From assembly GCA_034211175.1 (NCBI GenBank), contig JAXHUH010000073.1, positions 1 to 64,000 of the forward strand: a stretch of DNA of 64,000 nucleotides, read 5' to 3'. This DNA comes from Actinomycetota bacterium. Lineage in GTDB: Bacteria; Actinomycetota; Acidimicrobiia; Acidimicrobiales; CAIXPF01. Position numbers and translations under genes: made by a program. The notes below the pieces were generated by a model. The model was not told where the DNA came from and did not search any database. It saw nothing but the letters and a program-made list of their open reading frames with translations. Below, piece after piece: positions 9,061 to 45,009 of the stretch; within the stretch, counting starts at the first letter, position 1; each line of letters begins with the position of its first letter.

Positions 9061-10446
9061 ATGGAACGGATCGACACCCTGGTGCGGGGTTGGTACGTGG
9101 TCACGATGAACGCGACCCGCGACATCATCCGCGACGGCGTGGTCGCCATCCGCGACGGCGCCATCGTCGACGTGGGCAAGGCGTCGGACCTGGCGGCCCG
9201 CTACGAGGCGGCCGAGACGATCGGCGGCGACCGGTTCGTGGTCACGCCGGGGCTGATCAACACCCACATCCACATCACCGGTGAGCCGATCACCCGGGGC
9301 TACGTCCCCGACGACACGCCCTTCGAGGAGAACGTCTTCGTCTGGCTGTGCCCGCTCTACGCCATCGCCAACCCGGCGGAGGAGCGGCTGTCGGCCCAGC
9401 TCGCCGCGGTCGAGATGCTGCGCTCGGGGACCACGTCGTTCCTCGAGGCCGGCACGATCAACTACCTCGACGTCGTGATGGAGGCGCTGGCCGACATCGG
9501 CATCCGGGGCCGGCTCGGCCGTTGGGTGTGGGACCTGCCGCCCGAGCCGAGCGTCTACCGCCAGACGACCGACGAGGCCATCGCCCAGCTCGAGCGCCAG
9601 CTCGACGAGTACGCGTCGGTGGCCGACGACCGCCTGGCCGCGTGGTCGATCATCGTCGGCCACACCACGTGCTCGGAGCCGCTGTGGAAGGCGGCCCGCA
9701 CCCTGGCCGACGAGCGCGGCGCCGGCATGAGCTTCCACATGTCGCCGGCGAAGATGGACCCCGACGGCTACGCCGCGGAGTTCGGCCAGCGCCCGATGGT
9801 CCACCTCGACGAGATCGGGGTGCTCAAGCCGGCGACGGCGATCACCCACTGCGTCCACGTCGACGACCGTGAGATCGCGCTGATGGCCAACCACGGCGTG
9901 TCGGTGGCCCACTGCCCGACGACGGCGCTGAAGGTCAGCTACGGCGTGACCCAGATCGGCAAGATGCCGGAGATGGTGCAGGCCGGGGTCAACCTGGGGA
10001 TCGGGACCGACGGCAACAACGCCTCGAACTACTCGGACCTGATGCGGGCGACGTACTTGGTGGCCGGGCTGTTCAAGGACGCCCGCACCGACCCGCAGAT
10101 GTTCCCGGCCGAGAAGGCGTTCGAGATGGCCACCCTCGGCGGGGCGAAGGCCCTGCAGATGGAGGACCGGATCGGGTCGCTGGAGGTCGGCAAGCGTGCC
10201 GACCTCGTGCTCCACGACACCGACCGGCCCGAGTGGCGGCCGCTGCTCAACGTGATGAACCAGCTCGTCTGGTCGGCCGACGGCCGCGGCGTGCACACCG
10301 TCCTGGTCGACGGCCGGACCGTGGTCGCTGACGGCCGGATGACGACGATCGACGAGTCCCGCCTGTGGTCGGAGGTCCAGGCCGCCGGCGAGGCCATCGC
10401 CACCCGCTCCGGCCTCCCCGACAAGGCCAAGTACCCCACCCTCTGA
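9061..10446 (+). CDS. amidohydrolase (TRZ/ATZ chlorohydrolase / guanine-deaminase-like metal-dependent hydrolase)
   Basis: 461 aa. Metal-binding signatures (GLINTHIHI...; HCVHVDD; GTDG). Confidence 0.85.
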
Positions 10447-10492
10447 GGCGGCTAGGGTCGGTTTCGTCGTTGGACCGAGGGGGAGGCCGCCG

Positions 10493-11377
10493 ATGCCGAT
10501 CACCGCCGAGTTCCCGTGGGCCAAGCAGCACGTCGATGTCGACGGCAAGCGCATGGCCTACGCCGAGACGGGGGAGGGCGACCCGATCGTCTTCCTCCAC
10601 GGCAACCCGACGTCGTCGTACCTGTGGCGCAACATCATCCCCCACGTCGCCGACCTCGGGCGCTGCATCGCACCCGACCTCATCGGCCAGGGTGACTCCG
10701 AGAAGCTCGCTGACCCGGGCCCCGGCTCGTACCGCTTCGTCGAGCACCGCTTCTACCTCGACGGCCTCCTCGACGCGCTCGGCGTGCACGAGAACGTCAC
10801 CTTCGTCATCCACGACTGGGGCTCGGCGCTCGGCTTCGACTGGGCCAACCGCCACCGCGACGCGGTCGCCGGCATCGCCTACATGGAGGCGATCGTCATG
10901 CCGGTGAACTGGAGCGACTGGCCGGCCGAGGCGCAGCGCATGTTCCAGGGCCTGCGCAGTCCGGCGGGCGAGGAGATGGTGCTCGAGAAGAACCTGTTCG
11001 TCGAGGCCGTCCTGCCCGGATCGGTGCTACGGGGCCTCGCCGACGAGGAGATGGCCGAGTATCGCCGTCCGTTCGCCGAGCCCGGCGAGAGCCGGCGGCC
11101 GACGCTGACCTGGCCCCGGGAGATCCCGATCGAGGGCGAGCCGGCCGACGTCGTCGCCATCGTCGAGTCCTACGGGGCGTGGCTGGCGGAATCGCCGGTG
11201 GCGAAGCTGCTGATCGCGGCCGAGCCCGGCGCCATCCTCAACGGCCGCCAGCTCGACTTCGCCCGCTCGTGGCCGAACACGACCGAGGTCACCGTGAAGG
11301 GCAACCACTTCGTCCAGGAGGACAGCCCCGACGAGATCGGCACGGCCATCCGGGAGTGGATCGTGGCCCGCCGCTGA
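10493..11377 (+). CDS. dhaA: haloalkane dehalogenase (DhaA/DmbA type alpha/beta hydrolase)
   Basis: 294 aa. Signature motifs: [16 protein letters not shown], nucleophile elbow HDWGSALG, catalytic His context [14 protein letters not shown]. Confidence 0.9.
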
Positions 11378-40389: not shown

Positions 40390-41217
40390 ATGACGGTTCC
40401 GGCGGACGGAGGTCTGTCCAAGAAGGGCGGCCCGAGGGCGTGGTGGGCGGTAGGTGCCGCTGCGGTGCTGGTCGCCGCGGTGATCATCGGCACCCTGGTG
40501 CTGACCGACGACGACGACAAGGAGATCGTGGCGTCGGACCAGTCGACGACGTCGAGCTCCACCAGCTCGACCTCGTCGTCGAGCACGAGCTCGACGAGCG
40601 TCGCGGACACCTCGACGACGGTCCCGGCCGACACGACCACCTCCCTGGACACGACCGACACGACCGGAGCCGAGCTCGACACCTCCACCGTCGTGTTCCC
40701 CGACCCGGACACCGCCGAGCGCTTCGACGACCCGGTCGCCGCGACGCAGGCGTTCGCCACCGGGGTCATCGGCTTCACCGACCCGGTCCTCGGCGCGTAC
40801 GTCGCCGGGCCCGACAGCGCCGGCGTGGTCGAGGTCCGTCCCGCGGCCGACGGCCCGGTCACCACGGTGTCGATCGTCGAGCTCGCAGACGGCAACTGGT
40901 GGGTCCAGCAGGCGACGACCGAGAACATCGTCCTCGACGAGCCGACGCCGGCGGCCACGATCACGTCGCCGGTCACCCTGGCCGGCTCGGCGCTCGCCTT
41001 CGAGGGCACGGTCCAGGTCGCGCTGTGGGAGCGCGGCGGCGCCGCGCCGCTGGCCGAGACGTTCGTGACCGGCGGTGGCGACGCCATGGCCCCGTTCGAG
41101 GGCACGCTCGAGTTCCCGGCGCCGACCTCCACCGACGGCATGCTCGTCCTGTCGACGGAGTCCGCGGAGGACGGCTCGGTCCTCGAGGCGGTCGTCGTCA
41201 AGGTGGGCTTCGGCTGA
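40390..41217 (+). CDS. membrane-anchored Ser/Thr-rich protein with C-terminal Gmad2-like immunoglobulin-like domain
   Basis: N-terminal TM helix, an STS-rich low-complexity linker, and a C-terminal beta-rich domain (ITSPVTLAGSALAFEGTVQVALWE). Confidence 0.6.
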   Translation: MTVPADGGLSKKGGPRAWWAVGAAAVLVAAVIIGTLVLTDDDDKEIVASDQSTTSSSTSSTSSSSTSSTSVADTSTTVPADTTTSLDTTDTTGAELDTSTVVFPDPDTAERFDDPVAATQAFATGVIGFTDPVLGAYVAGPDSAGVVEVRPAADGPVTTVSIVELADGNWWVQQATTENIVLDEPTPAATITSPVTLAGSALAFEGTVQVALWERGGAAPLAETFVTGGGDAMAPFEGTLEFPAPTSTDGMLVLSTESAEDGSVLEAVVVKVGFG

Positions 41218-44175: not shown

Positions 44176-45009
44176 ATGGTCCTCGGCGTCGAGGAACCGC
44201 CGGCCGAGGCCGACATCGACCGCTGGGCCGACGCCGCGGTCACGACGTTCCTGCCGCCTACGGCCCCCGATAGCGGCGAACCCGCCGGAACTCGTCGGGT
44301 CGACGGCGGGTGGGCGTGGCAGGGTCGGGGCGTGGACAACGTGCGGCGTCGTCGACTGGTCACCGAAGCGCTCGACGGGTACGCGGCCGGGCCCGACGCA
44401 ACGGTCGCGGCCACGGCCGACGCACTGGACCGGGCGGCATCGGCCCGGGCCGTGGTGCTCGTCGAGGGGATCAGCGACCAGATGGCGCTCGAGGAGCTGG
44501 CGCGGTGCCAGGGCCGGGACCTCGGCGCCGAGCGGCTCGTCGTCGTGCCCATCGGCGGCGCGCAGGCGTTCGCCCGCGAGCTGCGCCGGTTCGGGCCGGG
44601 CGGCGCCGGCGTGATCGTCGCCGGGCTGTACGACGCCGGCGAGGAGGAGGTCGTCCGCCGGGCGATCGCCACCGCCGGGCTCGGTGCGCCCGTCACCCGG
44701 CACGAGCTGGAGGAGCTCGGGTTCTTCGTGTGCGTGAAGGACCTCGAGGACGAGCTGATCCGGGCCGCCGGTGCCGCGACGATCGAGGAGCTCCTGGCGT
44801 CCCAGGGCGACCTCGGCTCGTTCCGGACGCTCCAGAAGCAACAGGTCTGGCGGGGCCGGCCCTTCGACGAGCAGTTCCACCGGTGGCTGCGGGCCGGCGC
44901 CCGCCGCAACCTGCGCTACGCCCGCCTGCTCGTCCGGTCGCTGCCGCCCGACCGGGTCCCCCGACCGCTCACGGCCACCCTCGGCGCCATCCCGAACCAC
45001 CCCGGGTGA
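44176..45009 (+). CDS. hypothetical protein with Toprim-like (OLD/AriB-type) C-terminal domain; no ATPase partner nearby
   Basis: AVVLVEGISDQMALEELA … LVVVPIGGAQAF … FFVCVKDLEDELI follows Toprim motif order. The DxD motif appears degenerate (LYDAGEEE). Confidence 0.5.
   Translation: MVLGVEEPPAEADIDRWADAAVTTFLPPTAPDSGEPAGTRRVDGGWAWQGRGVDNVRRRRLVTEALDGYAAGPDATVAATADALDRAASARAVVLVEGISDQMALEELARCQGRDLGAERLVVVPIGGAQAFARELRRFGPGGAGVIVAGLYDAGEEEVVRRAIATAGLGAPVTRHELEELGFFVCVKDLEDELIRAAGAATIEELLASQGDLGSFRTLQKQQVWRGRPFDEQFHRWLRAGARRNLRYARLLVRSLPPDRVPRPLTATLGAIPNHPG

Follow-up and report, generated by a model that had tools for sequence, protein, structure and literature searches.

In OLD systems the nuclease is gated by an ABC ATPase, which acts as the sensor of infection or nucleotides. 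Published OLD Classes 1 to 5 all include this ATPase, whether in the same polypeptide or as the product of a neighbouring gene: Class 1 is a single fused gene, Class 2 (Gabija) is accompanied by GajB, Class 3 is associated with retrons, Class 4 (PARIS) consists of the adjacent genes ariA and ariB, and Class 5 is the archaeal Cran1 (PMC10568477; PMC12796447). The substrates of the family include DNA for GajA and the C-terminal regions (CTRs) of Class 2 enzymes, and tRNA for AriB and P2 Old (2026 preprint). Literature searches found no paper on OLD relatives that consist of the Toprim part only, although databases do label the domain. A protein of this kind is encoded in a 64-kb stretch of an Actinomycetota genome (contig JAXHUH010000073.1, positions 1 to 64,000; hereafter the window; ~73% G+C), by an open reading frame (ORF) of 277 aa on the forward strand (44176..45009). 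On balance, the product is probably the free-standing catalytic C-terminal region (linker, Toprim domain and helical domain) of a Class 2 OLD/GajA-type nuclease, and would act as an autonomous divalent-metal-dependent phosphodiesterase.

A preliminary description of this ORF had proposed a solitary Toprim-like protein of OLD or AriB type and had suggested a profile search and structure prediction, both of which bear out the Toprim assignment. The protein matches Pfam PF20469 (OLD-like_TOPRIM) with 32.6 bits (cut-off 23.2), and a profile of 40 homologues matches the CTRs of Class 2 OLD enzymes of Xanthomonas (1.1e-6) and Burkholderia (2.5e-4) in the PDB; no NCBIfam model matches it. An AlphaFold2 model from the homologue alignment (predicted local distance difference test score, pLDDT, 92.2; predicted template modelling score, pTM, 0.88) has two N-terminal helices (H3-14 and H23-35 in model numbering) and a Toprim core with the characteristic four-stranded parallel sheet flanked by helices. 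The top five Foldseek matches of this model in the PDB are all Class 2 OLD CTRs (E ~5e-6; template modelling score 0.64-0.69). The Toprim glycine motif P125-x-G127-G128 is present (G128 in 278 of 282 family sequences), and the core is followed by a helical domain of OLD type with predicted metal-B ligands and a putative catalytic basic residue. With a Toprim core as well as an OLD helical domain, the protein is OLD-type, and the AriB half of the earlier proposal does not stand. The ABC-type ATPase domain that characterizes the OLD family is neither fused nor adjacent, and the PADLOC GajA model PDLC00075 is matched only by the Toprim part (1.9e-16; model positions 355-468 of 536), not over its full length. 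As a separate observation, 44455-44667 of the window (aa 94-164) weakly resembles Pfam DUF3097_C (E 0.074; E 0.0047 for the homologue P0155), which hints that actinobacterial DUF3097 proteins may have a Toprim-like domain at their C-terminus.

The features of the gene are given below with residues numbered in the 277-aa form; numbers in the short, 225-aa form are lower by 52.

44332..45009, + strand: probable true coding sequence, 225 aa plus stop, from a GTG start (V53 of the longer ORF)
44176..44331, + strand: 52-codon N-terminal extension included in NCBI protein MDY7101198.1; not conserved and probably untranslated
44332..44442, + strand: two N-terminal helices (aa 53-89), equivalent to the ATPase-Toprim linker of full-length relatives
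44443..44736, + strand: Toprim core (aa 90-187), with the PF20469 match and the strands and helices of the AlphaFold2 model
44464-44466 (E97), 44476-44478 (D101), G127-G128, 44632-44634 (D153) and 44641-44646 (E156 and E157): residues of the Toprim core
44737..44985, + strand: OLD-type helical domain (aa 188-270)
44740-44754: D189-L-E191-D-E193 of the helical domain, equivalent to T506/E508 of Burkholderia pseudomallei (Bp) OLD
44890-44892 (R239) and 44908-44910 (N245, equivalent to Bp K562): helical domain, with the basic helix G-A-R-R-N-L-R-Y-A-R

The gene product probably has 225 aa and starts at the GTG at 44332, because the extension is not conserved, homologues begin at V53, and the G+C content of third codon positions (GC3) drops just before the GTG. 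The first 52 codons are missing from nearly all homologues, the N-termini of which align with V53. From the GTG onward GC3 is coding-like (0.95), and over 44266-44355 it is 0.70, equal to the G+C content of second codon positions. The first 90 nt of the extension (44176-44265) look coding by GC3 (0.93), so the GTG is the probable rather than the certain start.

The closest full-length relatives are GajA-like enzymes of ~535 aa, represented by P0292 (541 aa; 42% identity to the window protein over 183 aa), a complete OLD enzyme with an AAA_15/AAA_21 ATPase and a Toprim domain, which matches the PADLOC GajA model over its full length (1.4e-62). In the P0292 locus (L085 2026-10559), the only full-length locus examined, the 3' end of the gene is overlapped by a UvrD-family helicase gene. 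The locus also contains an N6_N4 methyltransferase gene and a ResIII helicase-like gene besides the GajA-like gene, and a PIN plus HTH_17 pair; since the methyltransferase/ResIII and PIN/HTH pairs flank P0292, it looks like a compact defence island. The P0292 subfamily is small, with 171 clusters (~532-536 aa), and every listed member retains the Toprim domain. By profile-profile alignment (hhalign; probability 100, E 1.4e-58), the solitary protein corresponds to residues ~316-541 of the full-length relatives: it begins just past their ABC H-loop motif and has no ATPase domain, and its N-terminal helices correspond, at low alignment confidence, to full-length profile positions 320-356. In a neighbour-joining tree rooted with the CTRs of Bp and Xanthomonas campestris (Xcc) OLD, the solitary proteins group together in one clade, placed beside the full-length subfamily or inside it. 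The simplest reading would be that the ATPase was lost once, and the UvrD-like helicase partner would have been lost as well as the ABC-ATPase sensor domain.

In Bp OLD, the ligands of metal A are E400, D455 and D457, those of metal B are E404, T506 and E508, K562 is required for processive cleavage, and the CTR without the ATPase is an active nuclease in vitro (PMC6755086). Profile alignment equates the residues at the metal A site with E97, D153 and G155 of the window protein, those at the metal B site with D101, D189 and E191, and K562 with N245. The catalytic Toprim glutamate, E97 in the motif V-L-V-E-G, is present in 277 of 282 family sequences; E97, D101, D153, D189, E191 and E193 are each found in at least 274, and the counts for E156 and E157 are 266 and 215. 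The OLD two-metal mechanism would probably operate here without the ATPase, as autonomous metal-dependent cleavage. E97 and D153 would bind metal A, with E156 and E157 in the outer-sphere role of the missing second aspartate of the DxD motif, and D101, D189 and E191 would bind metal B. The transition state would be stabilized by one basic residue, which is K245 for most of the family and R239 for the subtype of the window protein. Exactly one basic residue is found at positions 239 and 245 in 237 of 247 sequences (both in one, neither in nine), and the states of these positions change at least 18-23 times on a rough tree. In the outgroup, 239 and 245 are both basic, and K245 is invariant in the full-length relatives. 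We infer that one positive charge is needed at 239/245 and that R239 provides it in the window protein.

The solitary proteins are also much less acidic than their relatives in the nuclease module. Their median net charge over aa 90-268 is -1 (isoelectric point, pI, 6.4), against -10 (pI 4.7) in full-length relatives and -18 (pI 4.4) in the Bp/Xcc outgroup, and the segment 222-252 carries +6, +2 and -0.5, respectively. Six conserved arginines (R226, R228, R236, R243, R247 and R250) and a three-residue insertion are particular to the solitary family; at the last two of these positions the full-length relatives carry E247 and P250. The arginine-rich, lineage-specific patch on the helical domain fits the gain of autonomous nucleic-acid binding. 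DNA nicking or cleavage would be the favoured activity because the nearest relatives are GajA-like; tRNA is a possible substrate.

The family is large. In a word-indexed search, 7,293 clusters reached E ≤ 1e-3; the 120 best of these are proteins of 214-277 aa with 53-69% identity, apart from the identical sequence P0001, named 'TOPRIM nucleotidyl transferase/hydrolase domain-containing protein' in NCBI and derived from an Actinomycetota metagenome-assembled genome (MAG). An exhaustive search of 50%-identity representatives gave 1,423 at E ≤ 1e-3 and 161 at E ≤ 1e-30; the best 150 are mostly stand-alone proteins of ~180-240 aa or shorter fragments. The family consists of ~220-aa single-gene proteins, mainly of Actinomycetota. 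Among species-representative genomes, relatives are found in Acidimicrobiia, Streptosporangiaceae, Micromonosporaceae, Pseudonocardiaceae and Jiangellaceae, with a few more in bins labelled Chloroflexia, Gemmatimonadota or Alphaproteobacteria, and giant linear plasmids of Streptomyces carry copies of 205-222 aa. The median ratio of nonsynonymous to synonymous substitution rates (dN/dS) of 0.25 over 346 pairs indicates purifying selection, and the gene is therefore not a decaying fragment. One plasmid-borne homologue of 222 aa, which has no ATPase domain (L088 6872-7540; Streptomyces sp. NBC_01592 plasmid NZ_CP109324.1), is an 'ATP-dependent endonuclease' in RefSeq, and seven other Streptomyces plasmid records carry this label, which is misleading for the family.

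The gene bears the marks of an accessory, horizontally moving one: synteny around it is lacking (even among 16 Micromonosporaceae loci), some MAGs contain two copies, and closely similar copies are found in different orders. Copies of Planotetraspora and Micromonospora, genera of different orders, are 95% identical, with a synonymous divergence (dS) of 0.14. Three such comparisons (L046 with L049, L046 with L051 and L059 with L049; gene at ~10001-10663 in each), of Planotetraspora or Microbispora (Streptosporangiales) with Micromonospora (Micromonosporales), give 86-95% identity and a dS of 0.14-0.21, values to be read with caution as strong GC3 codon bias lowers dS. They suggest recent horizontal transfer between Streptosporangiales and Micromonosporales. 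The two copies in MFD05442.bin.2.3 (L026 and L031) are 96% identical; a second MAG with two copies is MFD09964.bin.1.311 (L007 and L009), where the same gene clusters flank both, which may be segmental duplication or redundancy of assembly or binning.

The preliminary description had found no ATPase partner next to the gene, and this holds well beyond the window: the gene is solitary across the whole family, and about 85 loci share no ATPase, helicase or small partner conserved beside it. The ATPase half of P0292, used as a phmmer query (positive control 7e-223), has no match in the window at E ≤ 10, and within 10 kb on either side of 80 loci it has only faint matches, at three (L031, L026 and L015); the best of these, in L031, is an ABC-F protein and not an OLD-type ATPase. 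The copy of Streptomyces goshikiensis has a nearby 'ATP-binding protein', but this is a classical AAA+/TPR protein and likewise no candidate. Clustering of ORFs within 8 kb on either side of the 80 loci revealed no recurrent neighbour other than a generic ABC-transporter ATPase (21 of 80 loci, at variable distance and on either strand, adjacent in one), which was dismissed as background; the remaining clusters are shadow ORFs of the gene itself. A screen of the flanks for small ORFs yielded no conserved one, its clusters being a low-complexity artefact and one confined to closely related genomes. The annotated neighbours on five long contigs and two plasmids differ each time and are mostly metabolic or regulatory. 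The 129 nearest-neighbour proteins represent 137 Pfam families, each in no more than five proteins, and neither AAA_15/AAA_21 nor UvrD is among the 25 commonest. There is no neighbouring UvrD/GajB helicase of the Gabija kind in the window, where a GH64 glucanase gene lies downstream.

Two further observations concern these contexts. The commonest families among nearest neighbours (L005-L072) are the glyoxalase/bleomycin-resistance fold (5), GNAT (4), and chloramphenicol-phosphotransferase-like, mycothiol S-transferase and MFS proteins (2 each), types associated with small-molecule detoxification or resistance; the numbers are small and the families abundant in actinomycetes. The context of P0020 (L086 1-16669) contains many hypothetical genes, Peptidase_S24 (LexA/repressor-like), Peptidase_M15_4 and, 7 kb downstream, a 235-aa UvrD-helicase fragment, and may be a prophage or mobile-element remnant.

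Several points weigh against an autonomous nuclease or against its employment in defence. The canonical DxD motif is incomplete: only its first aspartate (D153) is retained, G, A or R occupies position 155, and the motif is instead D-x-x-E-E. At position 245, equivalent to the catalytic K562, most members have K and the window's subtype has N; what suggests compensation by E156/E157 and R239 is conservation and covariation. Archaeal Cran1 loses its nuclease activity without the ATPase domain (PMC12796447), so independence of the ATPase is not universal in OLD enzymes and autonomy is not to be assumed. A nuclease free of regulation would be expected to be toxic, and the analysis revealed no mechanism that regulates this one. 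Bootstrap values are weak (20/60 and 33/60), so the direction of change (ATPase loss or later fusion) is poorly supported and a single loss is not established. As to defence, PADLOC identified only singletons among the nearest neighbours, with no enrichment of defence islands, and no relatives were found among INPHARED phage genomes, IMG/VR or PHROGs, for which reason a phage origin was dropped; guilt by association therefore lends a defence role no support.

The missing second aspartate, the asparagine in place of K562 and the toxicity expected of a constitutively active nuclease would all suit a catalytically dead, GajA-like fragment retained as a nucleic-acid binder, decoy or regulator. The preliminary description had likewise called the DxD motif degenerate and the domain possibly inactivated; the second aspartate is indeed missing, but inactivation is very unlikely. 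All other metal ligands are near-invariant in the 282 sequences, which would be unexpected for a non-catalytic scaffold, and D-x-x-E-E occurs also in full-length relatives that bear the ATPase (E156 in 27 of 30, E157 in 26 of 30, D189 in 29 of 30), one of them with a helicase partner in the only locus examined; DxD, with threonine at the D189 position, is found in the Bp/Xcc outgroup. Because D-x-x-E-E is common to the ATPase-bearing relatives, the loss of the second aspartate reads as a trait of the lineage and provides no evidence of inactivation. Bp OLD moreover tolerates single active-site substitutions (PMC6755086), the dN/dS is low (0.25), and the strict rule of one basic residue at 239/245 points to a maintained catalytic or substrate-contact function. 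It is also unlikely, if less so, that the protein is the nuclease subunit of a split, PARIS-like system with an ABC-ATPase sensor encoded elsewhere and acting in trans. All characterized OLD Toprim nucleases do work with an ABC ATPase, fused or adjacent (PMC10568477; PMC12796447), but split defence systems are usually operonic, whereas no OLD-type ATPase is encoded in the window and none is conserved within 10 kb of the 80 loci or in the annotated loci. A search with a full-length relative revealed no ATPase-only sister family among the matches listed, and the basic patch gained by the solitary lineage suggests self-sufficiency.

A domesticated housekeeping nuclease (for example, one for RNase M5-like processing of rRNA or tRNA, or a nickase of DNA repair) rather than a conflict or defence gene would agree with the ordinary metabolic and regulatory neighbours, the lack of any defence-island signal and the lack of phage copies. 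Cran1 has a non-defence role, in the cell cycle (PMC12796447), and P2 OLD and AriB are tRNases. This alternative is rather unlikely, and stands beside the horizontal movement described above. The free-standing OLD nuclease that we favour would have the role of an accessory enzyme of conflict or nucleic-acid turnover, not that of a core housekeeping enzyme.

In the window, the genes on either side are those named in the preliminary description: upstream, on the same strand, an MmyB-like regulator (MLTR_LBD, 7.7e-61) and downstream, convergently transcribed, a GH64 beta-1,3-glucanase (3.9e-96). Farther away are genes for a Zn-dependent alcohol dehydrogenase, a DUF1349 protein, a Gmad2-domain protein, dihydrouridine synthase, MeaB and methylmalonyl-CoA mutase; the neighbours are ordinary metabolic and housekeeping genes. 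The Gmad2-domain protein (40390-41217, + strand; 275 aa) begins with a hydrophobic segment, continues with a long linker rich in Ser and Thr and ends in an immunoglobulin-like Gmad2 domain (1.5e-16), and is probably secreted or exposed on the cell surface.

More than 7,000 clusters with an intact-looking active site and no linked ATPase raise the questions of how such proteins are kept harmless and what they are for. A broader reading, which is possible but doubtful, is that they constitute a large undescribed branch of the OLD family that has dispensed with the ABC-ATPase sensor, acquired its own basic surface and placed its catalytic basic residue at either of two positions; it would be self-sufficient and spreading horizontally in Actinomycetota, and would serve as a minimal effector of immunity or conflict under some new kind of control, or else as a domesticated enzyme with a function in the cell. 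As a small natural protein of 225 aa, the window protein may be a model of catalysis and substrate choice by OLD Toprim nucleases, and the rule of one basic residue at 239/245 and the D-x-x-E-E motif are directly testable predictions. The naming of some ATPase-less members as 'ATP-dependent endonuclease' is an annotation problem that the comparison exposes. Domain-only relatives of multidomain enzymes are common and this domain is already recognised by databases, which limits the interest to a moderate, specialist one.

Among known systems, Class 1 OLD enzymes (P2 Old, Thermus scotoductus OLD and E. coli YbjD) keep a fused ATPase that is essential for their phenotypes. Class 2 OLD/GajA enzymes, of which the nearest subfamily is that of PDLC00075 (e.g. 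P0292), have the ABC ATPase and the adjacent UvrD/GajB that the solitary protein lacks. Unlike them, the solitary family is not located in defence islands, has a three-residue insertion and extra arginines around the helix of the catalytic lysine (net charge -1 versus -10), and in the window's subtype has asparagine plus R239 in place of that lysine. PARIS AriB (Class 4) is similar in that its Toprim nuclease is on a polypeptide separate from any ATPase, but neither the adjacent ariA ABC-ATPase nor an AriB/DUF4435-type sequence or fold is found here. The best structure and sequence matches in the PDB are the Bp and Xcc OLD CTRs (6nk8 and 6njv/6njw/6njx), which, unlike the solitary protein, are artificial, have a canonical DxD motif and threonine in place of D189, are basic at 239 as well as 245 and carry a net charge of -18. 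These laboratory truncations are active without the ATPase (PMC6755086), and the solitary protein is their natural analogue.
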